Shown: positions 1 through 37,195 of the stretch, piece by piece
Position numbering within the stretch: position 1 is the first letter of the stretch
How the letters are laid out: each line of letters starts with the position of its first letter
Source of the DNA: Clostridia bacterium
GTDB lineage: Bacteria; Bacillota; Clostridia; UMGS1810
Assembly (NCBI GenBank): GCA_045576175.1
Contig: JAZNFW010000116.1
Coordinates: 1 to 60,360, forward strand
Length of the DNA: 60,360 nt
Direction: 5' to 3'
Notes under the pieces: generated by a model
What the model was told of the DNA's origin: nothing
Database searches by the model: none
The model's input: the letters and a program-made list of their open reading frames with translations, nothing else
Made by a program: the position numbers and the translations under genes

Positions 1-2
1 AA

Positions 3-1280
3 AACAACATTTTTGCAGATACCGGTGCAGGCACCAGAGCAATTATGTCAGTTGGTAGAGATAACACCGCAAGAAACAATGTGGTATATGGTATGGAGTC
101 GGGCGCAAAGTTCAGTGAAAGAAGCGGTGCTGTAACTGCTTTCCCCGGTACCAACGCTAACTATAGTGCTGCATACCAGAGTCTTACAGGCTATGTGACA
201 GATGTTATGCGAGCAAAATACTCCGTATTCAGTAAATGGTACGATGAATTATACTTCGACCCTGCTGAAACTGCAACTGGAACATTTGAAGCTAAAGACA
301 ATGTAGCTGAAGGCAATATACATGTCGATGTAACTTCAAAGGGATCCGTTTCCGGTGTTGAATTCACAACTTTGGATAAGAACAGTTTTATCGTCCCGGA
401 GAGTGCTTCAAATGAAGTAAGCATACAGAATAGTGACAACTCGTCTAAGTATACACTCGTTAACACAACACTTGGTCTTGATCAGATATTCACCGATATG
501 GCAAACCACGACTATACAATAAGTAGCGAATTCATAAATACAGGCGATTTTGCTACTAGCTTGTTTACAGAAGACTTTGAACTCATAGAGGGCTTTGATA
601 TGGACCGCATTGGTCTTGTGGGCAGCTTCTGGGAAGGTGTAAGCGAAGATAATTCATTTGTGCTTACATATCCTGTAAACCGCCAGATTGCATCAGACGG
701 TTCAGTTACACTCTCGTGGACAAAGGCACTTTATGCAGACAGATATCAGTATGCTGTGTACAATAGTAGTGATAATTCTCTTGTTGCAAGCGGTGAGGTT
801 GATGGATACCACTCAATGGCAATAATTGATGGCGGTCTTGAAGACGGTTCGTATTACTGGCAGGTTACTGCCATAAACGACTCCAAAGAAATGGGCGGTC
901 AGTGGTTATCCAACATGGCTAGCTTCGAAGTTGGAGTGCCTGACTACAGTTTGGCATTTGTCACCTTATATGATTCCAACGGACAGGAAATCTCGGATTT
1001 CTCTTCCCTTGCAAATGTTGCGTCTATGACATATGATATAGAAAACAACACAGAGTCCCCTACTTCATACGACATCATAGTTGCAGCATATGGCGGACAA
1101 TCAGCCCATACGGAAGGTGTCTTTGTTTATGACAGAGGACACGAGGCTCAGGTTGGAGTTACCACCGATACGGTTAGGCTGGAAACACAGACTTGCGAAT
1201 GTTGTGACCAAATGTGTATATTAATTTGCAAATCCGGCGACTTAGCTAATCCAATTGCTCAGATGTTAATCGCAAAGTAA
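3..1280 (+). CDS. C-terminal part (5'-truncated by window edge) of a secreted beta-helix/FN3-like multidomain protein, paralogue of 1540..5082
   Basis: The frame is open from nt 3 (NNIFADTGAGTRAIMSVGRDNTARNNVVYGMESG). It aligns with NNNIFVDTGANTRALMTFGRDVVARNNVVYGMESG of the next gene. Shared downstream blocks: QIFTDMANH.YTIS, LTYPVNRQI, LSWTKALYADRYQYAVY, YYWQVTAINDSKEMGG. Confidence 0.85.
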   Translation, partial: NNIFADTGAGTRAIMSVGRDNTARNNVVYGMESGAKFSERSGAVTAFPGTNANYSAAYQSLTGYVTDVMRAKYSVFSKWYDELYFDPAETATGTFEAKDNVAEGNIHVDVTSKGSVSGVEFTTLDKNSFIVPESASNEVSIQNSDNSSKYTLVNTTLGLDQIFTDMANHDYTISSEFINTGDFATSLFTEDFELIEGFDMDRIGLVGSFWEGVSEDNSFVLTYPVNRQIASDGSVTLSWTKALYADRYQYAVYNSSDNSLVASGEVDGYHSMAIIDGGLEDGSYYWQVTAINDSKEMGGQWLSNMASFEVGVPDYSLAFVTLYDSNGQEISDFSSLANVASMTYDIENNTESPTSYDIIVAAYGGQSAHTEGVFVYDRGHEAQVGVTTDTVRLETQTCECCDQMCILICKSGDLANPIAQMLIAK

Positions 1281-1539
1281 AGAACTTTGCAAATTAAAAT
1301 GCTACGGTATTTTATTTTGGTTCCGGTACACTGCAGCTGGAACTGACGGATTATGTTACTCTGTTGAGTAAGGAGTATGTAGTAGAATACATATGTAACA
1401 TAACTCAAACAGGTGTATAAAAAATAAATGCTTTCTGCGGGATGGCTTCAATATTATAAATACTTCTTTAGGGGTCATCCCCGGATAAGCATATGAAATA
1501 TATAAATATTACAAGTTTTAAATTGTTAGGAGTAATTTC

Positions 1540-4500
1540 ATGGAAAAAATTATCAAGAGACTACTTTCCATTATACTCACCATAAGTATTTTGGTTGTTT
1601 TTCTATGTCCTCAGTTTGCATTTGCCGATGCTTCGGACGCAACCGTTGTTATTGACGAATTCGAAGGCACAGTGCAAATAGCAGGAATTGTAGAAGACTA
1701 TACAAGTAGTCAAAAGGAAGCATATATAGTTGTACCTGCAAAAAACAAATCTTATGATGATTTTGCAAAGGCAACTACATATGAAGAGATAAATGAGGCT
1801 GTGGCATACATTGGCTATGTTACATTGGCAACTGGCGGAGCCTATAGCAAGACTTTTTCGGCTCCCGGAATACCTGCCAACCATCCCGTATATCTCTCTT
1901 ACAACGGTGTTGTAACAAACATCAACACAAACAATACAGGTTCATCCACTACTATACCTAAAAAACTTAATATAAATGGCAGTGTGGACTATGTAAAAGG
2001 CGTAGACACTGTAGAAATAGCCATTCTTAAAGCAGGATGCACTTATGATGACTATGTTAGTGAGGGAGATGCAGCCGAAGCAGTTCCCACAACGGAAGTG
2101 CCGGTAGATAGTGAGGGGAAATATGAATTTTCCGCATCGAATGTAACTGATATTGCTAGTACATCGAAAGTAGTTATTATATATAATGGCATCACCACAG
2201 TAAGAACGCTGCAGATGCATGAGTTTGTTGCTCAGTTCTATGTAGATAGCGAAAGCGGCAGCGACTCCAACGATGGTTCTGATGTGTCAAAAGCATTCAA
2301 GACTATTGACAAAGCAGAGAGTGAATATTCTGCACTTAAGTCAAAGGGCTTTAGCGGTGAGATCGTACTTTGCCCGGGCACATACTCGAGCATACCCGCA
2401 AAAGTAAGTCCTATAGGTGACGCTCGTCTTACCTATGTTGGTCTTGGCAATGTAGAAGATGTAGTTGTAAAGAACACCACAGATATTCCCCTTTCGGATT
2501 TTGAAGTGGTAACCGACAAAGCTATATTAAATAGACTCGACAGAAATGCAAGAGGCTATGTATATCAGGTAGACCTTGGCAAGCGCGGCCTCACAAGGGC
2601 AGACATCTTGGGTTCCGCGGCAGATGGATGGAGATACTCCTTTGAGATTTATATGGCACAGGCGTATCTTGACGGTGTGCCTCAGACAATAGCAAGATGG
2701 CCAAACGATGGATATCTGCAGACCAACTTTGCACAGACCAGTGGAACCACTACAGTAGCCGGCAATGAACTTAACCACTACACCGTTACAAACAGTGAAA
2801 TTGCAAACTGGACATTTGATGCCAATACCGATATGTATATGGAAGGTTTCTTCAACACATCTAAGGACTGGGTACGAGACCAAGCTATAGTAAAAGGTAT
2901 AGGCTCACAGGTTCTTACCTTTACCCAACCATATTATATGGGTGTTGGAAGCCAAGAGCTCGGAGCAAGCGGTTCATACGGTCGAGTAGCTTTCCACAAT
3001 TTCCTGGAAGGTATAGATATGCCGGGCGAATGGTATGTAGATACAAACACTATGATAATGTACTACTATATGCCCGATAATACAGATGCCGATGTGCTTG
3101 AACTCAACACATCCAGAACATCTGTTGTAAATGTTACATCTTCGCTTTCAAATGTAACCTTTAAGAACCTTACATTCAGAGGTGCCGGAAGCTATTCTGC
3201 AAGCGCATTCAACAATGTTAAAGGTGCTCTGTACTTCAAAAAAGCAGACAATGTCCATATAGAAGAGTGTGTTATTGAAGCATCGCGCTTTGGTGTAATA
3301 ATAGATGACGGAAGACACAATGTTATAGAAAACAACTCAATGCGTTATGTATTAGGAAACGCTGTATGGATTAAGGACGGTGGCGACCCCGCAACACTTG
3401 CCGAGAGTGCAAATGTTATTGCAAACAACCACTTCTACCACTGTGCTACAGCCGGCACACATGGTTTAACCGGCTACGAAACAGTTATCAGAGTCACAGG
3501 ACACATTGGTAATCTTATTCCAAACAGAATAGGTGAAATTATAGAAAACAATGTTGTTCACGCATCACCTTTTGCCGAAGCTGTTATGTACAACGGTCTT
3601 GAAGTACAGATAAGATACAACGAATTCTATAACCTCATAAGATACATGGGTGATGCAGGTGTTATATACTCCGGTGCAAGACTCAATACAGCAGGAAACA
3701 AGATAGAGTACAACTATTTCCATGACATCAGCAACACATTAAAGTCCGAAGGTGCATCTACAAATGCAGCTATATATTTCGATGACCTCCAGTCCGGTCA
3801 GACAGTAAACAACAACATCTTTGTTGACACCGGTGCAAACACCAGAGCTCTTATGACCTTTGGTAGAGATGTCGTTGCAAGAAATAATGTGGTATATGGT
3901 ATGGAAAGCGGTATAGTATTTAGTGACAGAGGCGTTTCCAATTTATCAACTGCAACGGGCAACTATAAGAGTGCACATAATTCTCTTAGCACCACCAATC
4001 TTACCGATGCCATGAAGGCAAAGTATCCGACTTTGGCAGCTTCATATACCGAGCTCTACAACACAGGGGCAGCCTTTGTACCTAAGAACCTTGAATCCGA
4101 GGGTAATATGCAGGTAAGTGTATCAAATACTGATTCAGCATCAGGAACTTCATTTACCAAATTAGCTAATAACCTTAAAATTTATCCTTCGAGAACTTCC
4201 GACAGAGTATATTCGTCTGGTTCCGGATCCGGCAAGTATTGGACTACCTCTACCAAACTTGGTGTAAACCAGATATTTACCGATATGGCAAACCACAACT
4301 ACACAATAAGCAACACATTCAAAAACAATAGTGCTTTCTCAAGCTACTTCCCCGCAGACTTTGAGTTGACACAGAGTTTTGCCATAGACAGCATAGGTCT
4401 TGTAGGAAACTTCTGGGATAATAGTGCAGAAGATAAGAACTTTAGTCTTACATATCCTGTAAACCGTCAGATAGAAGCAGCAGATGGCACAGCAACACTT

Positions 4501-5082
4501 TCTTGGACCAAGGCTCTCTATGCAGACAGATATCAATACGCTGTATATAGTAATTCCAACTTGAGCGCAAGTTCTCTGGTTGATTCCGGCGAGGTTAATG
4601 CGTATCACAATGCAGCAACAATTTCCGGCCTCCAGAACGGTCAGAAATACTATTGGGTAGTTACAGCCATCAACGATTCCAAGGAAATGGGCGGTGAGTG
4701 GTCCAGCATAAACACCGGTTACTTTACCGTAGGAACTCCCGACTACGCATTGGAAAATGTTTCCTTACTCGATGCTGACAATCAGGAAATTACAGATATG
4801 GCAAACATTGCAAATGCCAAGTATATAACATTTGACATTATAAACAACACAAGCGCATCTGCTACCTACGACCTTATCGTTGCACTTTATGATGCACAGG
4901 GCGAGCAGATGAAACAGGTATTATTACATGCAGAGGCTCTTACAGCTGCAAAAGGTACAACAAGTGCCAAGGTTGAAATTGCCTCAATTCAGAACTATAC
5001 AGCAGGCGACCAGATATATGTATTTACATGGAAGCCAAATGGTTCTATAGAACCGCTAGCAAAGAAGGTTATCATAAAGTAA
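1540..5082 (+). CDS. Secreted multidomain right-handed parallel beta-helix protein (putative glycan-degrading enzyme, family unassigned) with FN3-like and C-terminal beta-sandwich modules
   Basis: Signal peptide (LLSIILTISILVVFLCPQFAFA) and two Ig-like N-terminal modules. Beta-helix entry motif FYVDSESGSDSNDGSDVSKAFKTIDKA, plus ARWPNDGY and PGEWYVD..MYYY. Asn-rich coil repeats (NVIENNSM, NVIANNHFYH, IIENNVVH, KIEYNYFHD, VNNNIFVD). FN3-like LSWTKALYADRYQYAVY...YYWVVTAINDSKEMGG. Confidence 0.8.
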   Translation: MEKIIKRLLSIILTISILVVFLCPQFAFADASDATVVIDEFEGTVQIAGIVEDYTSSQKEAYIVVPAKNKSYDDFAKATTYEEINEAVAYIGYVTLATGGAYSKTFSAPGIPANHPVYLSYNGVVTNINTNNTGSSTTIPKKLNINGSVDYVKGVDTVEIAILKAGCTYDDYVSEGDAAEAVPTTEVPVDSEGKYEFSASNVTDIASTSKVVIIYNGITTVRTLQMHEFVAQFYVDSESGSDSNDGSDVSKAFKTIDKAESEYSALKSKGFSGEIVLCPGTYSSIPAKVSPIGDARLTYVGLGNVEDVVVKNTTDIPLSDFEVVTDKAILNRLDRNARGYVYQVDLGKRGLTRADILGSAADGWRYSFEIYMAQAYLDGVPQTIARWPNDGYLQTNFAQTSGTTTVAGNELNHYTVTNSEIANWTFDANTDMYMEGFFNTSKDWVRDQAIVKGIGSQVLTFTQPYYMGVGSQELGASGSYGRVAFHNFLEGIDMPGEWYVDTNTMIMYYYMPDNTDADVLELNTSRTSVVNVTSSLSNVTFKNLTFRGAGSYSASAFNNVKGALYFKKADNVHIEECVIEASRFGVIIDDGRHNVIENNSMRYVLGNAVWIKDGGDPATLAESANVIANNHFYHCATAGTHGLTGYETVIRVTGHIGNLIPNRIGEIIENNVVHASPFAEAVMYNGLEVQIRYNEFYNLIRYMGDAGVIYSGARLNTAGNKIEYNYFHDISNTLKSEGASTNAAIYFDDLQSGQTVNNNIFVDTGANTRALMTFGRDVVARNNVVYGMESGIVFSDRGVSNLSTATGNYKSAHNSLSTTNLTDAMKAKYPTLAASYTELYNTGAAFVPKNLESEGNMQVSVSNTDSASGTSFTKLANNLKIYPSRTSDRVYSSGSGSGKYWTTSTKLGVNQIFTDMANHNYTISNTFKNNSAFSSYFPADFELTQSFAIDSIGLVGNFWDNSAEDKNFSLTYPVNRQIEAADGTATLSWTKALYADRYQYAVYSNSNLSASSLVDSGEVNAYHNAATISGLQNGQKYYWVVTAINDSKEMGGEWSSINTGYFTVGTPDYALENVSLLDADNQEITDMANIANAKYITFDIINNTSASATYDLIVALYDAQGEQMKQVLLHAEALTAAKGTTSAKVEIASIQNYTAGDQIYVFTWKPNGSIEPLAKKVIIK

Positions 5083-5095: not shown

Positions 5096-8000
5096 ATGTA
5101 TAAAAAACATATAAAAAGCATTTTAGCTCTTGTACTCTGCCTGATACTTGTATCTGCTACATATATGTCGGTGGTTGCTGCGGCAACCCCGACAGAGATT
5201 GTGTTTCATGTAAGCACAACAGGTAGCGACAACAATTCAGGTACGGCTTCCGCACCGTTTGCTACTTTAGAGCAGGCGATGAAGGTTGTAAGCAAAACGG
5301 AACACTACGGTATTCCCGTTACGGTTTATGTTCACGGCGGCAAGTACAGACTAAACGGTAAATCACAGCTCTTCGGCGGCGCTGCAAGCGGCACCGAGGA
5401 TGCCAAGGTAACATTCAAGGCAGCAGGAGACGGCGAAGTTTTGTTCAGCGGTTTCAGGGATATCGATGTAACAAAATTCGAACCCATATCCGACCCTGCC
5501 ATGAGAGTAAGATTTAAGGAAGATGTTATTCCCTACATTGGCGCTCTCGACCTTGCAGCTCAGGGCTTTGACAGAGAAAGCCTTGATATGCTCCTCGGTA
5601 AGAGTAAAGAAAACTCTACACCCGACACCCTGGAGTATCAGGTAATGAGATTAAACGGCAAGGAACAGTACATTGCTCAGTGGCCAAACTACGGTGAGTT
5701 TGCTACAGTGGGCAAGGTGTTAAATGCCGGTGCTACATCCAGAACCTCCAAGGATCCCAGAGCAATATTCAAGTATACAGACAGTAATGTTAGCAGATGG
5801 GCAGACCCGTCCACCGCTATCATAAGAGGTTACTTAAGTAATGTTTACTTAGAGCAGTGGAATGCTATCTCAAATATAGATCCTGTAAACCAGACAATAC
5901 AGATGAAGTACTACAATGCTTCCCCCGGTCTTAAAGAGGGAAGAACCTGGAGAGTATTAAATATTCCCGAAGAGCTCGATGTTCCCGGTGAGTATTTTGT
6001 AGATGTAAATACAATGACTCTCTACTACTATCCTCCCTACAAGATTGCAGACACCGATAAGTTGGAGATGGCTGTAACCAAGGAAGCATGCATCAAGATA
6101 ACAGAAGCACAGCACATTGTATTCGATGGATTCACATTCGAGGGCTTCAGACTTTCCGGCGATGAAGATGGTCTTTTCGACCTCAATATGAGCCACAACA
6201 TCGAAATCAGAAATTGCCGCTTCGGTTACAACGGTGGTGGTAGTGCCATCATTATTAAAAAGGGTACAAATAACCTCGTAGAAGCATGTCAGTTCTACAA
6301 CACAGGTGCTCTTGGTGTAACTTTCTACAACAACGGCTACGAGACCGACTATAGCGATTATCCCACACTTGAGCCTGATAACAATATTGTAAGAAATAAC
6401 CATTTCTATAACACAGGTTCCGAGAACCTTCAGTCTGCAGGCTTTGCCGTAGGACACTCCATCACTTCCAACTACGCATCCGATGCCAATGTTGGTAATG
6501 TTATAAGAAATAACCTTATGCACCATATGTATGGTGGTATGATAATAACTTCCATGATGGAGTACGACATCAGCTACAATGAAATTGCAAACGGACTTCG
6601 TATCCTCGCAGACTATGGTCTTATCTATATAGGTGCATACAAGCACGCCTATGGTAATAGAATGACCTACAACTACCTGCACGACTTCTCTTCTGCAATT
6701 GACCCGTCCTATGCGGTTAACGGTATTTACTTAGATGACTGGAACAGCGCTAACATTACAGAAAACAACTTTATTGTGCCAAACTCCAAGGGTTCCATCA
6801 ATGCTATATTCAATGTTGGTGCATACCAGACAATAAGAAACAACATTTCTGTAAACACCAGAACCGGCGTTCTTCTTTCAAACAGAGAAACCCTCTATGG
6901 TGGTTCGCAGACAGTAATTAACGGTCAGGTAAACAGATTTGCTGCTCTTCCTGCAAATATGGTAGAAAAGTACGGTTTCCTTTTAAACATTAAACCCAAG
7001 ACACTTGAACTTGGCGGTCTCTTTGCTACAATGGGCAATGTTATGACCGGTAACGTTACAGTAAACGGTAAAAATAGTGTAAAAGAACTCCCGCTTAGCC
7101 TTGCTGAAAAGGTAGAAAACAACTATGTAAATGAGGCCGAAGATTACAGCATGTTCGTGGATCCCGAAAATCACGACTGGCGTATCAAGTCCGAATTTGC
7201 AGAGGCAAATGGATTTGACAAGGATATCATGACAGACAAGAACTTCTCTATGGACCAGATTGGTATCCAGAAGGATGTATGGGATATCAAAAATCCGTTG
7301 GATCCCTTCCGTCAGATTTACCCCAAGAATGGTGAGGAGGGCGTTTCCTCAAAGGATGTCGTATTAAACTGGGAGCCTGCACTCTTTGCCGATGAGTACG
7401 ATTGGGTACTTGCAAGAGACCCCGAGCTTACCGATGTAGTTGCAAAGGGCACATCCGTGTTCGAATACGCAAATGTAGGTGACCTCTCTCTTGGTCAGAG
7501 CTACTACTGGAAGGTTACAGCAAGAAATGTAACAAAGCAGATTGGTGCCGAGTGGGAAAGCTCCAGTGTACCTTTCGTATTTACTACAACCCACAGAGAA
7601 GAAGTAGACAAGAGCTTCTTGAAGACATCAATAGATATTGCCGAAAAAGCTTTTGCAGATGTTCAGGATGGAACAGGAAATATCGGCGAATTCAAGCAGG
7701 GTACAAAAGCTCTTCTTGATCAGCTTCTTTTAAATGCAAGAACAGTATACTTAAGCCACGCTTCAACTCAGAAGAGAGTGGATGCATGCGTAGCAGAACT
7801 CGACCGTGCAGTAAACGGTATAAGTGCATACAAGCACATGGGCTACATAACATTGGACACAACAAACTCTGAACTGTGGAAACCTGCAAAACCAAACACT
7901 ACAGTAACTGTTGCAGATGGTGTTGTAACTGCTATCGGTGGCGACACAGTTGCATATATGGGTAAGGTAGAAAACTACAATATGGTTAAGTTCAAGGTGA

Positions 8001-26128: not shown

Positions 26129-26155
26129 TGGTGCACAGCAAGGAGGATTAGTATA

Positions 26156-27034
26156 ATGAATAAAAGGAAAAAGAGAGGACAATTTGTCCTCAACATAGTT
26201 TTAATATTACTGTGCGTTGTAGTTATAGCACCAATGGTACTCCTGGTAAGTGTATCTGTTTCCAGCGAAACGGACATAGCTATGAACGGATATTCATTTA
26301 TCCCCAGACAGCTTGACTTCTCTGCATACAAATTTGTATTCGAGAGCCCCGATGTTATTCTTCAGGCGTACAAAGTTACAATAATATATTCATTTATAGG
26401 TATGTTCTTGAGTATCCTCATTAAGTCCATGATGGCATATATGCTTTCGGTAAAGATATTCAAAGCAAGAAGAGTTATTTCTCTTCTCTTGTACTTCACA
26501 TCACTCTTCGGTGGCGGTATGATAGCAAGCTACCTTATCTACACACAGGTATACGGACTTAGCGACTCACCTATTATGTATGTATTGCCCGGTCTTGTTA
26601 GCCCCTGGTATGTATTTATGATTAGAACAAGCATGCAGGGTATTCCGGAAGAGATTTCCGAATCTGCATTTATGGATGGTGCATCCGAGTACAGAATTCT
26701 CTGGCAGATGATAATTCCACTCTGTAAGCCGGTTCTTGCAACAGTTGCACTCTTCACTTTCCTTGAAAAGTGGAATGACTGGTCCACCTCCATGGTTTAC
26801 ATACAGAACCCCAAACTCATGAGCCTTCAGTATCAGCTCCAGAGAATACTCCAGAACATTCAGGCTATGCAGAGTACAGAAAATACAGGTATTGCAATTG
26901 ACCTTAGCAAGATTCCTACAGAAACAGCTCGTATGGCAATGGCAGTTATAGTTGCAGGACCTGCACTTCTTATATTCCCGTTCTTCCAGAAGTACTTTAC
27001 AAAGGGCCTCACAGTAGGTTCCGTAAAGGGTTGA
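26156..27034 (+). CDS. Carbohydrate ABC transporter permease (LplC/MalG-like)
   Basis: Multi-TM protein with the EAA loop ESAFMDGASEYRILWQMIIPLCKP. Confidence 0.85.
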   Translation: MNKRKKRGQFVLNIVLILLCVVVIAPMVLLVSVSVSSETDIAMNGYSFIPRQLDFSAYKFVFESPDVILQAYKVTIIYSFIGMFLSILIKSMMAYMLSVKIFKARRVISLLLYFTSLFGGGMIASYLIYTQVYGLSDSPIMYVLPGLVSPWYVFMIRTSMQGIPEEISESAFMDGASEYRILWQMIIPLCKPVLATVALFTFLEKWNDWSTSMVYIQNPKLMSLQYQLQRILQNIQAMQSTENTGIAIDLSKIPTETARMAMAVIVAGPALLIFPFFQKYFTKGLTVGSVKG

Positions 27035-28641: not shown

Positions 28642-31218
28642 ATGAAAAGATTTTTATCTGTTCTTCTTGCAGCAGTAATGTTACTTTCTATGGTAACAGT
28701 ATCTTATGCAGACGAACCCATAACCGTTGAGTACTGGAACGCAAACACAAGTACAATCGTTCTTGAACTCTCAGACAGTGTAAGTACTGCAGAACTCGAG
28801 TATGCTATTACTCTCACAGGTCCCGATGGTGTTATCTCCGGTGCAAACTACGAGGTTAATGCTCACACAACACCTGCAGGTGCTCACTCAACAACTCAGA
28901 TTGCTGCAAGTGATCACGGCAACTATGCTATAAGAGCACTTACACCCAATAGCTACACATACACAATCGAGCTTACAGAAGGTGCATTCGAGTTTGATGA
29001 AGAATATCGTCTTGATATTGCTGCATCCTTACTTGGCGGAGCTTATGGCTTAAAGTTTACAGTTAACAAAATTGCTGTAGAAAACTTCGCTACAGAAGCT
29101 TGGACCAAGGACTCTAGCGGTACATCAGTTACTGTTGCAGACAATGCTTTAACAGTTGTAGATGCTTATGCGAGACTTAATCATTCAACTTCAATTTCTG
29201 CTCTCTTTGCAGACACAGGAGTTAAACCAAGCTCCTGGCGTAATAACGCAAATAACCCCGCGGCAGACCAGATTAACCTTGAAGTTAAGGTAAATGTTGC
29301 AGATACTTCTGCGGCTCACGCTGTAGGCTTTGGTATTGCTAACCATATAAATACATTTTCACTTGGTGACAATGCTTTAACAGGTTGGGCAGGTATTTCC
29401 TTCGGTGCTAATGCAAATGGCGAAAGAAGAACTGCTGCCTTCCTTGCAAAGGGCAGAGAGTCCGACCCCAATGCAGATTATGGTGACCTTGCAGCATCCA
29501 CAACCTACTTTGGTGCAGCAACAAATGTTAACGCCTCCAACATGATTTATGATACACCCGACTATGCAATTACAGAGGCAGCTAAGACTTCTCCCTTTAC
29601 ACAGGGTCAGTCAACAAAGCTTTCTATGTTCTATGATAAAGCAGAAGCTGAAGAGACAGGTAAGATAATTTTTGGTGCAGATGGCGAATTCTACAACTAC
29701 GACCAGGATATGTCTGGTATCACAACTATAAGAGCTAACCCCTACCTCTTAGTAGAGAATACAACTGCAACATTTACTGATTTAATTATGTCCTATGCGA
29801 CAGGTTCTGAAATCGTAGCCTTCGAATTTGACGGTCCCACATTCTGGAACGCAGCATCCGACACAATCACACTTGACTTTGATAATCCCTTCGTAGCTTC
29901 TGAGCTTCAGGACGGTCTCGTTCTTATCGATGAAGACGGTGATGAAGTAGAAGGCCTCACAGTTAAGAAACTTACAGATATTACCAGAACCGATTACATC
30001 ACAGGCAAGCACACCTACCAGGTTACCGTTCCCGGCGGATTTACAGATGATGCTGTGTACACACTTCTTCTCTCCGCAGGTACATACAACGATACTAATG
30101 GCGGCACTGGCGTACTTGTAAATGATTATGCAGTAACTTTCTCTGTAGATATCATCCTTGTTGAAGACTTCTACAATGATGGCGCTTATGCGTTAAATGC
30201 TTCTTCAAGCTATTCCAGTTCTTCAAGCTATGGTACCCCTTGGGGTATGCCCTTTACCTCCGGTAGAAAAGGTGTTATGACAATCAAGGCAGGCGCTGAA
30301 AGCAATCAGTATGCCGAAATTACAACAACAGGCAGAGCATGGTTTGCACCTGCTGCACAGTCTTCACAGTGTGCAACTTACTTTGCAAACACCGGCGTGG
30401 TTGGTTATTCATACAGATCTCAGGAACAATATAAGAACTTAACCGATTATACAACAGAAGTGGATGTTAAGGTTTCCTCTAGCGCTGGATATAGCATAAG
30501 ATTACAGCAGACCGATAAGTACAACACCACAGGAACTAACTACAACTACTTCACAGTTAAAAAGACTTCTGCCGGTGCAGTTTCCACACAAGTAGCTCTT
30601 ATGAATGGTTCTGCTACATACTTCAATAACCTTGAAACAGGTTCAGCTTCTTCTGCAGACTATAATGCTTTGGCGGCAGCTGCTCCCAATGCTAATGAAT
30701 ATGTAAGACTTTCAATGTCCATTAAGGGCGAAGATCACAAGTGGCAGATTGGTGATGTAGTACAGCACCAGACAACAACAACTGCTACACCTTCAAACTA
30801 TGGTATAATCGCCTTTGATGTTGACAATGGCTTCAGCGGTAACACCTGGTCTATCGACAATATCATTCAGTCCAAGGCTACAGAAATATCCGGTATGACA
30901 GTAAGCGACATCGTAATCAACAATGATGCTTCTATCGAAAGCCTTGCAGGTCTTGGTCTTATTAATGCAGCTGTTTCCGTTCAGAACTACGGTAGCGGCG
31001 AAAACTGCGTAGCACTCCTCGCTGTATACAACTCTGCAGATGAGTCTATGGTAGATGTTTACATCTCCAACACAACTGCTATAGCTGCAGCAGATACTAC
31101 AGAAGTTGCATTTACTAATGTAGATGTATCCGAAGGTGACAGTATCGCAGTTTATATCTGGGATGGTCTTAAGAACCTTGTACCTTTCACAACTGCAAAG
31201 GTATTTCCCAAGAACTAA
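28642..31218 (+). CDS. Secreted 858-aa protein of unknown function, internally duplicated (2 x [small beta module + LamG/ConA-like module]) plus a C-terminal beta-sandwich shared with the beta-helix proteins
   Basis: Signal peptide (LSVLLAAVMLLSMVTVSYA). Repeat pairs: VEYWNANTSTIVLELSDSVSTAEL / PTFWNAASDTITLDFDNPFVASEL; YTYTIELTEGAFEFDEEYRL / HTYQVTVPGGFTDDAVYTL; LKFTVNKIAVENF / VTFSVDIILVEDF. RBS GAAAGGTG. Confidence 0.7.
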   Translation: MKRFLSVLLAAVMLLSMVTVSYADEPITVEYWNANTSTIVLELSDSVSTAELEYAITLTGPDGVISGANYEVNAHTTPAGAHSTTQIAASDHGNYAIRALTPNSYTYTIELTEGAFEFDEEYRLDIAASLLGGAYGLKFTVNKIAVENFATEAWTKDSSGTSVTVADNALTVVDAYARLNHSTSISALFADTGVKPSSWRNNANNPAADQINLEVKVNVADTSAAHAVGFGIANHINTFSLGDNALTGWAGISFGANANGERRTAAFLAKGRESDPNADYGDLAASTTYFGAATNVNASNMIYDTPDYAITEAAKTSPFTQGQSTKLSMFYDKAEAEETGKIIFGADGEFYNYDQDMSGITTIRANPYLLVENTTATFTDLIMSYATGSEIVAFEFDGPTFWNAASDTITLDFDNPFVASELQDGLVLIDEDGDEVEGLTVKKLTDITRTDYITGKHTYQVTVPGGFTDDAVYTLLLSAGTYNDTNGGTGVLVNDYAVTFSVDIILVEDFYNDGAYALNASSSYSSSSSYGTPWGMPFTSGRKGVMTIKAGAESNQYAEITTTGRAWFAPAAQSSQCATYFANTGVVGYSYRSQEQYKNLTDYTTEVDVKVSSSAGYSIRLQQTDKYNTTGTNYNYFTVKKTSAGAVSTQVALMNGSATYFNNLETGSASSADYNALAAAAPNANEYVRLSMSIKGEDHKWQIGDVVQHQTTTTATPSNYGIIAFDVDNGFSGNTWSIDNIIQSKATEISGMTVSDIVINNDASIESLAGLGLINAAVSVQNYGSGENCVALLAVYNSADESMVDVYISNTTAIAAADTTEVAFTNVDVSEGDSIAVYIWDGLKNLVPFTTAKVFPKN

Positions 31219-31357: not shown

Positions 31358-32206
31358 ATGAAAATTTTGATGATCGGAGCACATCAGGACGACAACGAAT
31401 TTCGTTGCGGCGGTCTTGCCCACAAATATGTAAAGATGGGCTACGAGGTTAAATTCTTAAGTATGTGCGACGGTGGCGGCGGTCACCACATTATGAATTT
31501 TGAAGAAACCGTTGCCTGCCGTGCAAAAGAATCCGCAGCAGTTGCCGAGCTTCTTGGAGTAACATACGATGTGTGGGATGTAAATGATTGCAACCTTGTT
31601 GCAGACCTCGCCACAAGAAAGCGTCTCATAAGATACATAAGAGAGTTTAATCCCGATATGATTATAGCTCACAGAACAAACGACTATCACGCAGACCACA
31701 GAGCATCTGCACAGCTCGTACAGGACGCATCCTATCTTCTCACAGTACCCAACGAGTGCCCCGACACTCCCGCTATGCGTTTTATGCCGGTTATTCTCTA
31801 CAATTTGGATGCATTCAAGTATCCTCCGTTCGAGCCTCACATCGTTCTCGATATGGACGACGAAATAGACACAAAACTCCAGATAGCACACCTAAATAAG
31901 TGCCAGGTATATGAATGGCTTCCTTACACAAAGGGCTGGACCGATATCCCCGAAGATGATGCTGAGCGTTTTGAATGGCTCAAGGGTATGACAATAACAC
32001 AGGATACAACAGACGAAGAAGTAATGGCAGCCAAAAGAGGCTATGCTGTTCGTTTTGCCAAGGTTGCAGCTCGTTTCCGTAAGGAGCTTATAGCAAAGTA
32101 CGGCGAGGAAAAGGGCAGCAAAATCCGCTATGCAGAAGCATTCCAGGTTTCTGAATACGGCGCTCCTCTTACAGATGAATTAAAGGCAAAGCTCTTCCCG
32201 TTTTAA
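31358..32206 (+). CDS. PIG-L/LmbE-family N-acetylglucosaminyl deacetylase
   Basis: MIGAHQDDNEFRCGG (AHxDDxE zinc motif) and HRTNDYHADHR. No signal peptide. Confidence 0.75.
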   Translation: MKILMIGAHQDDNEFRCGGLAHKYVKMGYEVKFLSMCDGGGGHHIMNFEETVACRAKESAAVAELLGVTYDVWDVNDCNLVADLATRKRLIRYIREFNPDMIIAHRTNDYHADHRASAQLVQDASYLLTVPNECPDTPAMRFMPVILYNLDAFKYPPFEPHIVLDMDDEIDTKLQIAHLNKCQVYEWLPYTKGWTDIPEDDAERFEWLKGMTITQDTTDEEVMAAKRGYAVRFAKVAARFRKELIAKYGEEKGSKIRYAEAFQVSEYGAPLTDELKAKLFPF

Positions 32207-32395: not shown

Positions 32396-33574
32396 ATGGA
32401 TTTTACACCGCTTAAAAATTTTATGGACCACCTTACCGACTGGCGCATACCGGGCAACTCCGTGCGCGTATTTAAAGACTGCAAGGAGGTCTTTCGCTAT
32501 GAATCAGGCTATTCCAATTTGGAACAGAAAATTAAGATGAATGGAACCGAATTGTTTAATATATATTCCTGTTCAAAGGTTGCCACAGTTACTGCGGCAC
32601 TCCAGCTCTACGAACAGGGCAAATTCCTTTTGGACGATCCCCTCTATGAGTACATACCCGAATACAAGGATATGATGGTAAAGACCAAAGAGGGTGAACT
32701 CGTGCCCGCAAATAGCCACATCACCTTAAGACAGCTCTTTACAATGACAGCAGGCTTTACCTACAACCGCAAGACCCCCGCATATGACAAAGCACGCGAA
32801 TTAACAGGTGGCAAAATGAACACCGTTGAGGTAATCCGCTGTATTGCAGAAGACCCGCTTGCATTCCATCCGGGCGAAAAGTTTAACTACAGCATATGCC
32901 ACGATATTCTTGCGGCAGTAGTAGAAATAATTTCGGGAACAAGATTCAGTACATATGTAACACAGAACATATTCGAGCCTCTCGGTATGACACGCACCTG
33001 CTATCACCTGCCCGAAGAAAAGGAACACGAGATGGCAGAGCAGTATATTTATGTAAATACTACCGAAACCAACAGAGTTGCCCTTCAGAGCGGCAAATTC
33101 AGTTCGGAAGAAGGTCACATAGAAAACACAGGCAAAAAGGCATACCACAACAACGGCCCCGAGTTCGACAGTGGCGGTTCCGGTGTAGTAACCTGTGTCG
33201 ATGACTATGTAAAATTTGTAGCTGCTCTTGCAAACTACGGTATGGGCGTAAACGGCGAGAGAATACTCTCTCCCGGCACAGTAGACCTTATGCGTACCAA
33301 TCAGCTCACACCCGAACAGCGTAAAGCTCTTAAGTGGCCTCAGCTTACAGGCTATGGCTATGGACTTGGTGTCCGCACAATGACAGACAGAGCACTAAGC
33401 GGCTCCAACGGTTCCTACGGCGAGTTTGGATGGGGCGGTGCAGCAGGTGCAACAGTGCTTGCAGACCCCGAGCTTAACCTTGCTATGTTCTACACACATC
33501 ACATGCAAAATCCTCAGGAGACATATTATCAGCCAAGACTTAGAAATGTTCTTTACAACAGTATAGGTAGATAA
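32396..33574 (+). CDS. Beta-lactamase-fold serine hydrolase (class-C/esterase/D-aminoacyl-amidase-like), cytoplasmic
   Basis: S-x-x-K motif in IYSCSKVATVTAALQL. It is ~390 aa with no signal peptide. Confidence 0.7.
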   Translation: MDFTPLKNFMDHLTDWRIPGNSVRVFKDCKEVFRYESGYSNLEQKIKMNGTELFNIYSCSKVATVTAALQLYEQGKFLLDDPLYEYIPEYKDMMVKTKEGELVPANSHITLRQLFTMTAGFTYNRKTPAYDKARELTGGKMNTVEVIRCIAEDPLAFHPGEKFNYSICHDILAAVVEIISGTRFSTYVTQNIFEPLGMTRTCYHLPEEKEHEMAEQYIYVNTTETNRVALQSGKFSSEEGHIENTGKKAYHNNGPEFDSGGSGVVTCVDDYVKFVAALANYGMGVNGERILSPGTVDLMRTNQLTPEQRKALKWPQLTGYGYGLGVRTMTDRALSGSNGSYGEFGWGGAAGATVLADPELNLAMFYTHHMQNPQETYYQPRLRNVLYNSIGR

Positions 33575-33580: not shown

Positions 33581-33614
33581 AACTCCTTCTTCTCATAGAG
33601 GAGAAGGAGTTTTT
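33581..33614 (+). terminator. Rho-independent terminator after the serine hydrolase gene
   Basis: AACTCCTTCTTCTC-ata-GAGGAGAAGGAGTT (one mismatch) followed by TTT. Confidence 0.75.
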
Positions 33615-33632
33615 GGCATATTCAAAACGAAA

Positions 33633-33687: not shown

Positions 33688-34050
33688 GTGGATCGAAAGC
33701 ATAATAGAAAAATAGTTCCGTTTGCAAAAGAACTTAGAAAAAACATGACCAAAGAAGAAAGACATCTTTGGTATGATTTTCTAAGGTATTACCCCATAAG
33801 GTTCACAAGACAAAAAGTTTTGGGAAAATATATAGCAGATTTTTATTGTGCAAAAGCAAATATTGTTGTTGAATTAGACGGCTCACAACATTTTGAAGAT
33901 GCCGGACTTATAAACGATGAAATAAGAACCACTTATTTGCAAGAATATGGAATAAAGGTTATAAGAATATCAAATCTTGATGTACTTAAAAATTTTGAAA
34001 GTGTATGTCTGCATATTGATAATGAAATAAAATGTGCTATGAATAAATAA
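33688..34050 (+). CDS. DUF559 (Vsr-like endonuclease fold) protein
   Basis: KELRKNMTKEERHLWYDFLR...RFTRQKVLGKYIADFYCAKANIVVELDGSQH...IRTTYLQEYGIKVIRISN matches the DUF559 pattern. GTG start. Confidence 0.75.
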   Translation: MDRKHNRKIVPFAKELRKNMTKEERHLWYDFLRYYPIRFTRQKVLGKYIADFYCAKANIVVELDGSQHFEDAGLINDEIRTTYLQEYGIKVIRISNLDVLKNFESVCLHIDNEIKCAMNK

Positions 34051-34362: not shown

Positions 34363-35292
34363 ATGACAAAACAAGAACTTTTAAAAAGAATAGGAAGCGT
34401 AGAACAGATAGGCGGTGTGCGTGATTTTACCTTCAATGACGGCAAGGCTAAGGGCGTTCGTGCCATAGAGGTAAACACAGGCAAAATCCGTTTTACCATA
34501 CTCCCCGACAGATGTATGGATATAGCACAGGCAGAATTTGAAGGTACATCATTTAGCTGGATTTCCAAGACAGGCATCACCTCGCCGTATTACTACGACA
34601 AGGACGGCACAAACTGGCTCCGCGGATTTTACGGCGGTCTTATTACCACATGCGGTCTTAAAAACGTGGGCGGACCCCACGGCGACCAGGGTCTCCACGG
34701 CAGAGTCGCAAACATCCCTGCTTCCAAGGTGAGCGTGTTTGCAGACTGGGTGGGCGACGAATATGTAATGAAAATATCGGGCGAAATGCGTGAGTGCGTG
34801 GTGTTTGGCTTAAACCTTGTGTTTAAGCGTACCATAACCACCAAGCTCTTTTCTTCAAGCTTTGAGGTAGAAGACACCATCGTAAACGAAGGCTTTGCCG
34901 AAGAAGGCGTGGCACTTTGCTACCACTGCAACTTTGGTTATCCTCTTGTTACAGAGGGCGCCAAAATGATAAACCTCCCTGCCGATGTTGCAGATATATC
35001 TGCTCCCATACACGGCAAAGAAGAAGAGTGCATACATGTTCATTTTGATACCGATATTCAGACAGTAGGTATAGAAAATGACGAAATGGTTGCATACATC
35101 ACATACCACAGAGACACCCTTCCGGGCTTTTTAATCTGGAAGATGATGGGCGAGAGTGAGTATGTGGTAGGTCTTGAGCCTCGTACAATAAATGGTCCTG
35201 CCGGCAAAAATGAAAACGACAATTGGCTTGTAAAACTCGCTCCCATGCAGGAGTACACAACAAAACTCAAATTCGAGATAAAGAGGAAATAA
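34363..35292 (+). CDS. Aldose-1-epimerase-like protein (DUF4432 family)
   Basis: 309 aa. N-terminus MTKQELLKRIGSVEQIGGVRDFTFNDGKAKGVRAIEVNTGKIRFTILPDRCMDI and the GLHGR motif fit the DUF4432/mutarotase-like family as I remember it. RBS AAAGGAGAA. Confidence 0.55.
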   Translation: MTKQELLKRIGSVEQIGGVRDFTFNDGKAKGVRAIEVNTGKIRFTILPDRCMDIAQAEFEGTSFSWISKTGITSPYYYDKDGTNWLRGFYGGLITTCGLKNVGGPHGDQGLHGRVANIPASKVSVFADWVGDEYVMKISGEMRECVVFGLNLVFKRTITTKLFSSSFEVEDTIVNEGFAEEGVALCYHCNFGYPLVTEGAKMINLPADVADISAPIHGKEEECIHVHFDTDIQTVGIENDEMVAYITYHRDTLPGFLIWKMMGESEYVVGLEPRTINGPAGKNENDNWLVKLAPMQEYTTKLKFEIKRK

Positions 35293-35293
35293 T

Positions 35294-36253
35294 ATGAAAC
35301 CATATTATTTGGATTTACAGAAGAATACGGCAGATAAGCTCCAAAAATACGACAATAGCTTTTCTTTTGCGGTTGTTGCCGATTCGCATCTGGACAACTC
35401 TGTGCCCGACACCTGCGATAATATAAAAAGTGTTTCTTCGAAGTCCAATTTATCCTGCGTTTTGCATATGGGCGATATAATGTGCGGTGGTTTCCCGCGC
35501 GCAGTTGCAAACGAAATTATGCGTGACGAGATAAAAACTTTTGTAGATGCATCGCCAAATGGTGAGTTTTTTGTAACGCGAGGCAATCACGATGGCTTTG
35601 GTGACCCTGTAAAATCGAGAGCAGATGTGCTTGTAGACGGCGACTGGAACAAGGCAATAGAATATGTAGACAGCTTTTCCAATGTATCGAGAGATGCCGA
35701 TGCGTCATATTACTATGTGGACTACGCGGATTATAAAACGAGGCTCATCTGCCTTAATTCGTACTCTGTAAGAAGAGATCCCGATGACGAGGACAGAGGG
35801 AACATAGCCGGCTACAACGGCAAACAGCTTGAGTGGTTTGCTACCTGCGCTCTTGATGTGCCAAAGGATTTTACGGTACTTGTTTTTTCGCACGATTTAC
35901 CGTTTAAAAACTTTCCCGATGCTATATCCGAAAACAGCATAGTGGGTGGAAACGCTATGATTGAGGCTCTGCTCGATGCAAAGGCAAAGAACGGTTTTGA
36001 TTTTGCAGGTTGGCTCGTAGGCCATTTTCACGGGGACTTTGAGCACTATCTTGACTCAATTCCCTTTGTGTGCTTTGTGTCGCAAACAGCATATGTTCCT
36101 ACACTTTTCGAAAAGACAAAGGCGGTATATCCCGCAAGACACCTTGGCACTTTGACCGAGGACGCGTGGGATGCAGTTGTTGTAGACAAAGAGGATAGAA
36201 AACTGCGTCTTTTCCGTTTTGGAGCGGGAAAAGACAGAGAAGTATCGTATTAG
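35294..36253 (+). CDS. Calcineurin-like metallophosphoesterase, cytoplasmic (motifs intact)
   Basis: AVVADSH (D-x-H), HMGDIMCGG (GD), TRGNHDG (GNHD), FSHDLP and VGHFHGD. It starts 2 nt after the upstream stop. Confidence 0.75.
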   Translation: MKPYYLDLQKNTADKLQKYDNSFSFAVVADSHLDNSVPDTCDNIKSVSSKSNLSCVLHMGDIMCGGFPRAVANEIMRDEIKTFVDASPNGEFFVTRGNHDGFGDPVKSRADVLVDGDWNKAIEYVDSFSNVSRDADASYYYVDYADYKTRLICLNSYSVRRDPDDEDRGNIAGYNGKQLEWFATCALDVPKDFTVLVFSHDLPFKNFPDAISENSIVGGNAMIEALLDAKAKNGFDFAGWLVGHFHGDFEHYLDSIPFVCFVSQTAYVPTLFEKTKAVYPARHLGTLTEDAWDAVVVDKEDRKLRLFRFGAGKDREVSY

Positions 36254-36256
36254 AAG

Positions 36257-37195
36257 GTGATTTTTGTGGGCATATTTGATAGCGAAATAAAGAAAACTAT
36301 AGCTGATATATTAGAAGTAAAAAAAGACGGAGACCTTTGTTTTGCGCTTCTCTCGGACACTCATATATCTGACGAAGGTATAGATACACGCAGCAACATC
36401 TGCGAGGTTGACAAGGCAGTAAGCTTTGACTTTGTGTGCCATCTGGGAAATGTTACAAATGGTGATAACCCGCAAAACATATCCAGAAAGATGTTTAGAA
36501 GAGAGCTTGATGCCTACAGATTTTCTGTAGGCAAGAATACACTCTATGTAACACAGGGCGACACAGACGGCTGGCGTGACGAACGCTACATAGGTCAGCT
36601 TGTAAAGGGTATATTTTTTGATAAAGAGTGGTACGAAGATACTTCATTTATCCACTATGAGCAGGGTGGTGTAGGACCAAAAGGCAAACCATATTACTAT
36701 GTGGACAAAGAAGATATAAGGCTTATATTCCTTTGTTCATATTTCAGACAGTATGATCTGGAGATAGAATTCCATCAGAAATATGTGGGCTACGATGCCG
36801 AGCAGATTAAGTGGCTTTTAAAAGAAGCACTAAATGGCTGCGAAGGTAAGAAAGTGCTTATCTTTACCCACAGAATACCGCTTTCCCGCTTTGAATGCGG
36901 CAAAGCCCCTTTTATATACAGGGGCAATTCCACCGAAGCCTTTTTGACTGTGCTTCAGCAGGCAAAGGAAAGAGGCGTGGATATCGTTGGTATATTTGCA
37001 GGTGCATACAATGCCGATGATGTAGAAAGTATAGGCGATATAAATCATATCCTAATTGGACATCAGCTTGCAAAGGGCAGGGAACTGGGCACCATAGAGC
37101 AGGATTTGTGGGACGCAGTTGTCCTTAAGAAAAATGAGCGAAAGGTTTATCTCTTCCGCTTTGGCGCGGGCGAGAATAGAGTAGTAGAGTATTAA
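36257..37195 (+). CDS. Metallophosphoesterase paralogue with degenerate metal-binding motifs
   Basis: ALLSDTH is kept, but GD is replaced by HLGNVTNGD and GNHD by TQGDTDG. The track start is GTG 36257; GTG 36266 has better spacing to AGAAGG, so the start is uncertain by 9 nt. Confidence 0.65.
   Translation: MIFVGIFDSEIKKTIADILEVKKDGDLCFALLSDTHISDEGIDTRSNICEVDKAVSFDFVCHLGNVTNGDNPQNISRKMFRRELDAYRFSVGKNTLYVTQGDTDGWRDERYIGQLVKGIFFDKEWYEDTSFIHYEQGGVGPKGKPYYYVDKEDIRLIFLCSYFRQYDLEIEFHQKYVGYDAEQIKWLLKEALNGCEGKKVLIFTHRIPLSRFECGKAPFIYRGNSTEAFLTVLQQAKERGVDIVGIFAGAYNADDVESIGDINHILIGHQLAKGRELGTIEQDLWDAVVLKKNERKVYLFRFGAGENRVVEY

Follow-up and report, generated by a model that had tools for sequence, protein, structure and literature searches.

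The contig JAZNFW010000116.1 of the Clostridia bacterium assembly GCA_045576175.1 was analysed over 60,360 nucleotides (referred to as the window), and the present account concerns the candidate polysaccharide utilisation locus (PUL) that fills its first 37,195 positions. An earlier note, made from the letters of the sequence, had described this region as an island of secreted and wall-anchored proteins, an oligosaccharide importer, a two-component system and a set of cytoplasmic enzymes. All components named there were found in their places by open reading frame (ORF) listing and by Pfam, NCBIfam and PDB searches, which also bore out nearly all of the family calls. The genes lie on the plus strand, apart from the divergent sensor/regulator pair, and tandem paralogs abound among them, with beta-helix, glycoside hydrolase family 3 (GH3), ceramidase-like (Cer) and metallophosphoesterase (MPE) copies detected by all-against-all BLASTP. 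Secreted and cytoplasmic products separate cleanly in an N-terminal hydrophobicity scan. Briefly, a hydrophobic signal is carried by the beta-helix proteins of 1180 and 1408 amino acids (aa), both S-layer homology (SLH) proteins, the binding protein of the importer, and an 858-aa protein. None was detected in the GH3 enzymes, CerA and CerB, the TIM barrel, the PIG-L protein, the beta-lactamase-fold protein, the DUF4432 protein or the two MPEs, in agreement with their previous designation as cytoplasmic.

At the left end, the ORF at 3-1280 has no upstream in-frame stop and represents the last 425 aa of a beta-helix paralog that shares 48% identity with the 1180-aa protein over residues 758-1180 of the latter (BLASTP); the gene continues beyond the contig end, which leaves the locus incomplete on this side. 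The secreted, GH141-like 1180-aa protein itself, with C-terminal fn3-like domains, is encoded at 1540-5082, followed at 5096-9322 by its secreted 1408-aa paralog with a C-terminal Cu_amine_oxidN1 domain, the two sharing 26% identity over 858 aa (BLASTP). Pfam recognises Beta_helix (1.9e-6) and Cu_amine_oxidN1 (8e-30) in the 1408-aa protein, the N-terminus of which matches PDB entry 9rx2 and BT_1002. The three giant secreted beta-helix proteins announced earlier are thus real as paralogs, but one is only a C-terminal fragment, and the 858-aa protein, once a candidate for the third, was ruled out by its lectin-like AlphaFold2 (AF2) model.

The 1180-aa protein has no identical sequence on record (exact look-up) and no Pfam domain over threshold, and its sequence scores for GH141 all stay below threshold: PF21231 (GH141_M) gives 14.1 bits against a cut-off of 27, and a weak match to PDB 9rx2 was also obtained. 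Among the beta-helix proteins, the phmmer match to 5mqp reaches an E-value of 6e-4 over 80 N-terminal residues. Its AF2 model, of moderate confidence (mean predicted local distance difference test score, pLDDT, 69.7), predicts a parallel beta-helix like that of BT_1002. The top Foldseek match is 5mqp, BT_1002 of GH141 (E 1e-16, template-modelling score TM(target) 0.51-0.54); its E-value is ten orders of magnitude lower than those of the next matches, to GH110, GH136, a phage depolymerase and GH87. BT_1002 possesses an essential Asp pair, D523/D564 (PMC12786026); D705 and D748/D749 of the 1180-aa protein, which may be its counterparts as judged by spacing, are invariant in all seven full-length relatives at 38-44 residues apart, as against 41 in BT_1002. 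A word-seeded search of 5.8 billion proteins returned only five relatives besides the protein itself, some of them carrying Beta_helix, Pel9A-like or GH141_M domains. A polysaccharide-lyase reading, prompted by the Pel9A-like domain in relatives and a weak PelN match, was ranked below the GH141-like one because of the Foldseek ranking. From the model, the beta-helix proteins are presumed to be distant GH141-like surface glycosidases; as the characterised GH141 members comprise a fucosidase, a xylanase and endo-fucanases, the fold says glycosidase and not which substrate.

Two SLH wall-anchored proteins had also been called, and both possess Pfam SLH matches and signal peptides. The first (598 aa, 9322-11118) ends in three SLH repeats serving as a wall anchor (2e-35, three stretches), while the second (SLH986, 986 aa, 11131-14091) carries an N-terminal SLH repeat (1.3e-9) and gave nothing useful in a PDB sequence search. 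The secreted 858-aa protein (28642-31218) has no Pfam, NCBIfam or PDB sequence match and belongs to a very rare family, with 27 relatives (clusters) among 1.84 billion representatives. Its AF2 model (pLDDT 79.4) shows a module, present twice, in which an Ig-like domain is joined to a jelly roll of ConA/CBM66/galectin type, and Foldseek pairs the domains with CBM66, galectins and GH16 at a TM(target) of 0.5-0.6; on this model, it is presumed to be a surface glycan-binding protein.

Downstream of the SLH genes, GH3a (14795-16411) and GH3b (16428-18089) are 60% identical, cytoplasmic enzymes of the NagZ/Nag3/BglP clade with a His acid/base (Glyco_hydro_3 1.8e-55 for GH3a). The signature K-H-(F/I)-P-G ... 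D-x-H has been listed as a feature of the NagZ clade (PMC6987092). Both enzymes display KHFPG-x-G-x4-D-x-H with exact spacing, in GH3a as KHFPG-x-G-x4-D-Q-H at residues 184-196, and the Asp-His dyad signature is accordingly present as KHFPGGGTEYRDQH (residues 184-196) and KHFPGGFGGYRDGH, in addition to an IVSD nucleophile motif. They are like the clade in this spacing and in the two-domain cytoplasmic build (6k5j, 5vqd), but have G instead of H/L, and Q or G instead of S/T, at variable motif positions. The designation NagZ-like therefore stands as far as the Asp-His signature goes, but not for specificity. The NCBIfam NagZ model yields 104 and 74.5 bits against a cut-off of 207, both proteins being sub-threshold for all equivalogs, and the best PDB match of GH3a is the beta-glucoside phosphorylase 5vqd (4.5e-46), followed by B. 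subtilis YbbD/NagZ (6e-37) and the Paenibacillus GlcNAc-ase 6k5j (2.8e-35). With a beta-glucoside phosphorylase as the best solved relative, beta-HexNAc specificity is plausible rather than certain, and phosphorolysis instead of hydrolysis is possible. A decayed third copy precedes GH3a at about 14287-14778, where tblastn fragments in several frames match GH3a residues 293-538 and the last 68 codons survive as an ORF at 14566-14778 (79% identical). As a syntenic relative described below has three intact GH3 genes, the lineage of the window is losing one.

CerA (18111-19409, 432 aa) and CerB (19560-20906, 448 aa) are 61% identical, and the earlier assignment of both as neutral-ceramidase-like amidohydrolases is sustained by Pfam (Ceramidase_alk-N in both, 7e-16 for CerA) and by the alignment of their zinc-site motifs. 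The true start of CerB is probably the ATG of MFKMGM.... The Pfam match extends only over positions 1-228 out of 509. A profile of 23 family sequences aligns the HTHSGP and H-P (aaHP) motifs with the zinc site of 4wgk (human) and 2zws (Pseudomonas), placing the Zn-binding and catalytic His motifs of neutral ceramidase in the N-terminal domain. Invariant among the 23 homologs are H90, H92, H188, H192, E355, Y385 and Y397, and the Glu with the two Tyr, 12 residues apart, may correspond to the remaining ceramidase ligand set. The full-length ceramidase architecture (a C-terminal domain, about 650-700 aa, secreted or membrane location) is absent from CerA and CerB. Their closest homologs in the protein collection are 57% identical, and literature searches on PF04734, on ceramidase-type proteins in PULs and on ceramidase-like deacetylases retrieved no relevant characterisation.

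The next gene (20922-21752) encodes an AP_endonuc_2 xylose-isomerase-like TIM barrel (Pfam 4e-26). It had been called an isomerase, a label that gives way to one nearer the IolE-type keto-sugar dehydratases/eliminases: PDB searches retrieve IolE 3cny (4e-11) as well as the sugar phosphate isomerase/epimerase entries 8tct, 8tcd and 8tcs, while the score with the NCBIfam IolE model TIGR04379 is 84.9 bits, the cut-off being 290. By sequence, then, the protein is related to IolE (keto-sugar dehydratase/eliminase type), yet it is not IolE. Further to the right, a cytoplasmic PIG-L/LmbE-family de-N-acetylase (31358-32206) and a cytoplasmic beta-lactamase-fold serine hydrolase of esterase/amidase type (32396-33574) were both confirmed by Pfam, as was the DUF4432 protein discussed below. 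The former scores 87.4 bits with PF02585 (cut-off 28.2; 1.4e-24) and retains the zinc motifs AHQDD (residues 8-12) and H-A-D-H (residues 111-114), but is not the BshB1 equivalog (NCBIfam, 87 versus 182.5 bits). The latter (Beta-lactamase 1.2e-54) has the S58-x-x-K61 motif, and its best NCBIfam match is the esterase AcmB at 138 bits, below the cut-off.

The importer and its regulators likewise agree with the LplABC-type system under a YesMN-type pair proposed before. On the minus strand, a membrane His_kinase/HATPase_c sensor (YesM-like, 21953-23716; His_kinase is PF06580) with three transmembrane-like segments is preceded by a receiver-AraC regulator (YesN-like, Response_reg-HTH_AraC, 23716-24912). 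Divergent from these, two LplB/LplC-like BPD_transp_1 permeases (25160-27034) and an LplA-like binding-protein lipoprotein with SBP_bac_1 and DUF3502 domains (27090-28547) make up the importer, with no ATPase gene in the locus.

The orientation of the genes and the divergent pair agree with the single same-strand train described at first, but transcription as one operon does not. Terminator-like hairpins lie after SLH986 (14105-14127, 10-bp and GC-rich), the TIM barrel (21925-21941), the beta-lactamase-fold gene (33586-33609) and MPE2 (37256-37282, bidirectional), and therefore split the plus-strand genes into five or more units, to which the divergent sensor pair is added. Promoter-like sites matching 11 of 12 positions occur before CerB (19460-19488) and on the regulator side (25033-25005), and strong promoter-like sites flank the divergent regulator/ABC junction. 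Behind the terminator of the beta-lactamase-fold gene stands a DUF559 (Vsr-like endonuclease) ORF (33688-34050, Pfam 1e-27), with hairpins on both sides and a gap of 313 bp between it and the DUF4432 operon; it is probably an insertion that has nothing to do with the locus. Within and beyond the region alike, GC content stands at about 0.40-0.45, and the region is therefore a locus and not a horizontally transferred island, a possibility that was considered and ruled out on these grounds.

The operon beyond the insertion comprises the DUF4432 gene (34363-35292, Pfam 9e-75), MPE1 (35294-36253, Metallophos 6.5e-11) and MPE2 (36257-37195). The DUF4432 product is aldose-1-epimerase-like, matching PDB 3ty1, a 'hypothetical aldose 1-epimerase' (1e-14). 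It is about 70% identical across many Clostridia and is found in unrelated contexts too, and literature searches on DUF4432 and on 9RX2 found no relevant characterisation. Two metallophosphoesterases had been counted, and MPE1 does have all five motifs (D30-x-H32, G60-D61, G97-N-H-D100, H200 and G243-H-x-H246) and a Pfam score of 43.5 bits against a cut-off of 21.5, with no PDB sequence relative found. MPE2, a degenerate paralog 30% identical to MPE1, remains below the Pfam cut-off at 14.2 bits and has changed GD to GN, GNHD to GDTD and GHxH to GAYN. As it lacks GD, GNH(D/E) and GHxH, only one catalytic phosphoesterase is predicted. MPE2 keeps the C-terminal signature of the family and, to judge from its motifs, may be a non-catalytic partner of MPE1.

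Evidence that these genes belong together comes from one distant uncultured relative, pieced together from contigs of the sibling Logan runs SRR27608102 (L011) and SRR27608104 (L008/L098). Gene order is kept over 1.5-32.2 kb, from the 1180-aa protein through PIG-L, at protein identities from 46% (SLH986) to 88% (TIM barrel). In L011, a Gfo/Idh/MocA gene and an AraC gene, both on the minus strand, are followed by a Big_5 protein, proteins of 1204 and 1407 aa, two SLH proteins and a GH3. L008/L098 continues with two SLH proteins, three GH3s, two Cers, the TIM barrel, a minus-strand Metallophos gene, the kinase and the regulator, and, right of the regulator, two permeases, the binding protein, a 1239-aa protein and a partial gene. 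The 1408-aa protein has a 70%-identical ortholog in L011, and the SLH proteins have orthologs in L008/L011, that of the 986-aa protein being the 46%-identical one. GH3b (79%), the sensor pair (53% and 65%) and the importer (65-75%) have theirs in L008. The partial gene is 42/44 identical to the N-terminus of the window's PIG-L protein and occupies the equivalent position, as does the 1239-aa protein (P0256, L098 10001-13720), a three-repeat member of the 858-aa family. The number of lectin repeats hence varies at orthologous positions, with two in the window and three in the relative.

The right-hand module follows a different course. In the relative, the DUF4432-MPE1-MPE2 triad resides on a separate 7.5-kb contig (L094), with DUF4432 86% identical and the triad followed by an M20 amidohydrolase. 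The block of 37 kb claimed at first is accordingly supported as far as PIG-L, and is less secure for DUF4432-MPE-MPE, which a terminator and the inserted ORF set off in the window. The core of the relative does hold an extra Metallophos gene in the gap between TIM barrel and kinase, encoding a 394-aa distant paralog of MPE1 (E 7e-12), and this provides an independent link between phosphoesterases of this family and the system. In other Clostridia, portions of the locus are met again as sub-modules of beta-helix, GH3 and Cer genes, with or without the beta-lactamase-fold or TIM-barrel gene. One such locus (L007) combines a binding protein, a 1879-aa beta-helix relative, a beta-lactamase-fold protein (55% identical), GH29, Cer, GH1, GH30, ABC genes and a two-component system. 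Another (L009) contains AraC, GH3 (61-63% identical), Cer, GH30, a two-component system, a TIM barrel and a beta-helix relative, and in a third (L095) PIG-L adjoins DUF4432. The order kept in the relative, together with parts recurring elsewhere, means that the arrangement is more than chance. Full-text literature searches found no characterised orthologous locus, which agrees with the previous remark that the enzyme set matched no recognised pathway.

The neighbourhood of the Cer family gives independent support for de-N-acylation, which had been part of the logic proposed earlier. From a scan of JGI metagenomes with a Cer profile, 41 independent loci were taken in which the homologs are at least 33% identical to the Cer proteins of the window, the syntenic relative being left out, and the 113 ORFs lying no more than 3 kb from Cer were counted by family. 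The top families in this census are DegT (11), AraC (7), AP_endonuc_2 (6) and Gfo/Idh/MocA (4). DegT/class-I aminotransferases adjoin Cer in three loci (L010, L092 and L093), two of which (L092 and L093) also have Gfo/Idh/MocA and TIM-barrel genes, and individual Cer loci hold PIG-L, NagA-like and NagB-like enzymes. The company of DegT, Gfo/Idh/MocA and TIM barrels therefore speaks for amino-sugar de-N-acylation and not for a lipid amidase; it would suit an enzyme that exposes the amino group of N-acylated amino sugars (or aminocyclitols), so that transamination and keto-sugar reactions can follow, and argues for a soluble amino sugar rather than ceramide as the substrate, a lipid being unlikely. 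Cer genes occur mostly as tandem pairs or triples (L001-L006, L008), which suggests hetero-oligomers or sequential specificities. In the two loci with GH30 (L007, GCA_052835425.1, and L009), this neighbour is cytoplasmic and its best named relative is a BT3312-type endo-beta-1,6-glucanase, a hint that the Cer module can serve different glycans. A scan of GTDB representatives with CerA gave a best match of 53% identity, and none of the six loci shared the locus of the window.

For Gram-positive PULs (gpPULs), the minimum definition is a degrading enzyme, a transporter and a regulator (Sheridan et al. 2016, PMC5320581). All three are represented here, by two GH3s with the beta-helix proteins, the importer and the sensor/regulator pair, activity on a polymer being predicted. 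The reading favoured by the present data, with somewhat more confidence than doubt, is that of a multi-operon gpPUL for a complex glycan with N-acylated amino sugars, most plausibly one of microbial (bacterial or fungal) envelope origin. It is the three predicted de-N-acylases and the Cer neighbourhood that argue for an N-acyl-amino-sugar polymer. A phosphorylated or phosphodiester-linked polymer is also on the table, as MPE1 is present here and a third paralog lies in the core of the relative.

In the corresponding mechanism, the three GH141-like beta-helix glycosidases, the two SLH proteins and the lectin-repeat protein would fragment or hold the polymer at the surface. The YesMN-like pair would sense a product and switch the operons on, and the LplABC-like ABC system would take up oligosaccharides. 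Inside the cell, the two His-type GH3s might strip beta-linked terminal residues by hydrolysis or phosphorolysis, CerA, CerB and PIG-L would take off N-acyl/N-acetyl groups, and the beta-lactamase-fold serine hydrolase would remove an ester or amide substituent. The IolE-like TIM barrel could handle a keto-sugar intermediate, probably supplied by a Gfo/Idh/MocA 3-dehydrogenase, the gene for which would lie just past the truncated left end, as in the relative; the TIM barrel and the levoglucosan-dehydrogenase-like nature of the relative's upstream Gfo gene together suggest a 3-keto-sugar step. DUF4432-MPE1-MPE2 would form a loosely attached accessory module that may treat an anomeric or phosphorylated product. 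The compartment logic of the earlier note (surface enzymes, importer, sensor pair and cytoplasmic trimming enzymes) holds, and its interpretation as a whole is partly supported; the particular polymers that it put forward (teichoic acid, capsule, phosphoglycan, host glycoconjugates) are guesses. A broader and distinctly more tentative proposal, doubtful as it stands, is that Cer constitutes a new carbohydrate de-N-acylase family, amounting to a new family of carbohydrate-esterase type, working with His-type GH3, IolE-like eliminases and, elsewhere, DegT in an undescribed catabolism of N-acylated amino sugars. In that case, the locus would represent the first complete utilisation system for the parent polymer, equipped with rare GH141-like depolymerases and an orphan lectin-repeat protein, and the polymer would be a glycan of microbial envelopes, perhaps with phosphodiester links.

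Several findings weigh against the favoured gpPUL reading. There is no DegT, NagA/NagB or sugar kinase gene within the locus in the window, the terminators and the DUF559 insertion set the right-hand genes apart, and full synteny was obtained in only one relative, pieced from two sibling runs. A scan of JGI metagenomes with the Cer profile returned 80 loci, all at or below 40% identity except for a 55-residue fragment (L083, 58%), and these share with the window only Cer, sometimes the TIM barrel, and generic transporter/regulator families. Three further points count against an amino-sugar polymer and at the same time for a plant, algal or fungal glycan of neutral or acidic character (for example fucosylated, xylan-type or rich in beta-glucan side chains), on which the GH3s would act as beta-glucosidases, xylosidases or phosphorylases while the amidases/esterases clear minor decorations. 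Characterised GH141-like folds act on fucose in rhamnogalacturonan II (RG-II), on xylan and on fucoidan, and none on an amino-sugar polymer (PMC12786026); GH3 specificity is ambiguous, the beta-glucoside phosphorylase being the best solved relative; and GH30 (BT3312-like, beta-1,6-glucanase), GH1 and GH29 genes stand beside the Cer and beta-helix relatives in L007 and L009, hinting at neutral glycans. An L-fucose isomerase gene elsewhere in the window can be added. Three predicted de-N-acylases are nevertheless hard to explain on such a substrate, the Cer family is strongly tied to DegT aminotransferases and NagA/NagB, and Pfam detected no classical plant-wall CAZyme (carbohydrate-active enzyme) families in the locus, so that this explanation is judged unlikely.

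Scavenging of peptidoglycan or muropeptides from necromass would have the GH3s cut GlcNAc, an AmiE-like beta-lactamase-fold protein act as MurNAc-L-Ala amidase, and Cer/PIG-L deacylate or cleave amide-linked stems. The NagZ-type motif of the GH3s, the presence of YbbD/NagZ among their best PDB matches and the M20 amidohydrolase after the MPE pair in the relative are in line with this, and nagZ and amiE are paired in B. subtilis. The association of GH3 with a beta-lactamase fold recurs, RmNag3 having a beta-lactamase domain of its own (PMC6987092). Against this, the annotation of the window includes no MurQ etherase, MurNAc transporter/kinase, lysozyme, amidase or NlpC/P60-type wall hydrolase, GH141-like beta-helices are found at the surface in place of muramidases, and the best NCBIfam match of the beta-lactamase-fold protein is the esterase AcmB and not a peptidoglycan enzyme. 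Peptidoglycan as the substrate is therefore quite unlikely.

Alternatively, the region could be a mosaic of independent operons (surface-protein, GH3-Cer-TIM, ABC and DUF4432-MPE) with no common substrate, co-oriented by chance or through the direction of replication. Co-orientation is the default here, since cumulative GC skew is positive over the whole window, and the terminator-like hairpins between units, the wide conservation of DUF4432 in unrelated contexts and the DUF559 insertion fit the same picture. A mosaic is nonetheless very unlikely in view of the beta-helix-to-PIG-L order kept in the relative at only 46-88% protein identity, the re-association of beta-helix, GH3, Cer and beta-lactamase-fold genes in differently arranged loci, and the MPE paralog within the core of the relative. 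Barely credible is catabolism of glycosphingolipid, glycosyl inositol phosphoryl ceramide (GIPC) or glycosylphosphatidylinositol (GPI)-type head groups, with Cer acting on ceramide amides, PIG-L on GlcNAc-inositol, the TIM barrel on inositol-derived ketones and the MPEs on an inositol-phosphate link: the family names coincide (Ceramidase_alk, PIG-L as the GlcNAc-PI deacetylase family, IolE-like, Metallophos) and GH30, the glucosylceramidase family, adjoins Cer in L007 and L009, but Cer is cytoplasmic, placed after import by an oligosaccharide ABC system, and does not include the C-terminal domain of ceramidases. In addition, genes for an alpha-glucuronidase, a mannosidase or lipid handling are absent, the GH30 neighbour resembles beta-1,6-glucanases by score, and the census favours soluble amino-sugar or cyclitol metabolism.

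Downstream of the locus, the window continues with a convergent glutamate dehydrogenase gene, GltD-like genes, PfkB, an Rnf operon and NAPRTase, and farther on with 6S RNA, MurD, M42 peptidases, the L-fucose isomerase and MatE, a housekeeping set of a Clostridia-type anaerobe. Past the glutamate dehydrogenase gene, overlapping ORFs for a DHOD-B-like Fe-S/FAD protein, a GltD-like oxidoreductase and a PfkB sugar kinase occupy 38778-42065. The 6S (SsrS) RNA gene, at 51122-51320 on the plus strand (91.4 bits versus an Rfam gathering score of 46.4), lies outside the locus and was the sole result of the tRNA and Rfam scans of the window.

In uncultured Clostridia from gut, rumen and termites, a substrate cannot be assigned to the majority of carbohydrate loci, and PULs of this kind are numerous in these organisms. 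The present locus offers a concrete protein set as a lead for enzyme discovery, and its activities, once assigned, would enrich the catalogues of glycan degradation with new enzyme families. They might also show by what means anaerobes exploit the cell-envelope glycans of dead microbes (necromass), a flux of carbon and nitrogen that is little understood.

Taken together, the gpPUL architecture is known, and no characterised counterpart of the enzyme set within it was found in the literature that could be searched. Three of its components are effectively uncharacterised: the short amidases of ceramidase type, the divergent branch of GH141-like proteins and the protein with lectin repeats. Described gpPULs, both of Roseburia/Eubacterium rectale and of the Bacillus/Ruminiclostridium YesMN-LplABC type, share surface glycanases, a DUF3502-type importer, a PF06580 kinase with a receiver-AraC regulator and cytoplasmic exo-enzymes (PMC5320581). 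None of them has this enzyme set: here GH141-like beta-helix proteins would do the degrading, and the cytoplasmic enzymes are mostly of amidase, deacetylase and esterase type instead of classical glycosidases. The parallel beta-helix fold is shared with the GH141 members BT_1002 (alpha-L-fucosidase), Xyn141E (xylanase) and Wf141 (endo-fucanases), but identity in the structural alignment is only 12-13%, and the proteins of the window have double the length and additional domains at both termini (fn3-like, Cu_amine_oxidN1).

With the 3-keto-glycoside and inositol pathways (IolG/IolE, BT2157-2159, LgdA/LgdB), the locus has in common the AP_endonuc_2 TIM barrel and, in the relative, an adjacent Gfo gene. 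It departs from them in an IolE score of 85 versus 290 bits and in having no Gfo gene in the window, the latter because the left end is truncated. The peptidoglycan-recycling cluster of B. subtilis (murQ-murR-murP-amiE-nagZ-ybbC) likewise combines a NagZ-type GH3 with a beta-lactamase-fold hydrolase, but MurQ, MurP and NamZ are missing from the annotated products of the window, where the enzymes are cytoplasmic and beta-helix glycosidases are predicted at the surface. Finally, the neutral ceramidases (4wgk, 2zws) share their zinc-site motifs with CerA and CerB, whereas the latter consist only of a catalytic domain of about 430 aa, are cytoplasmic, often occur in tandem and reside in sugar/amino-sugar loci.

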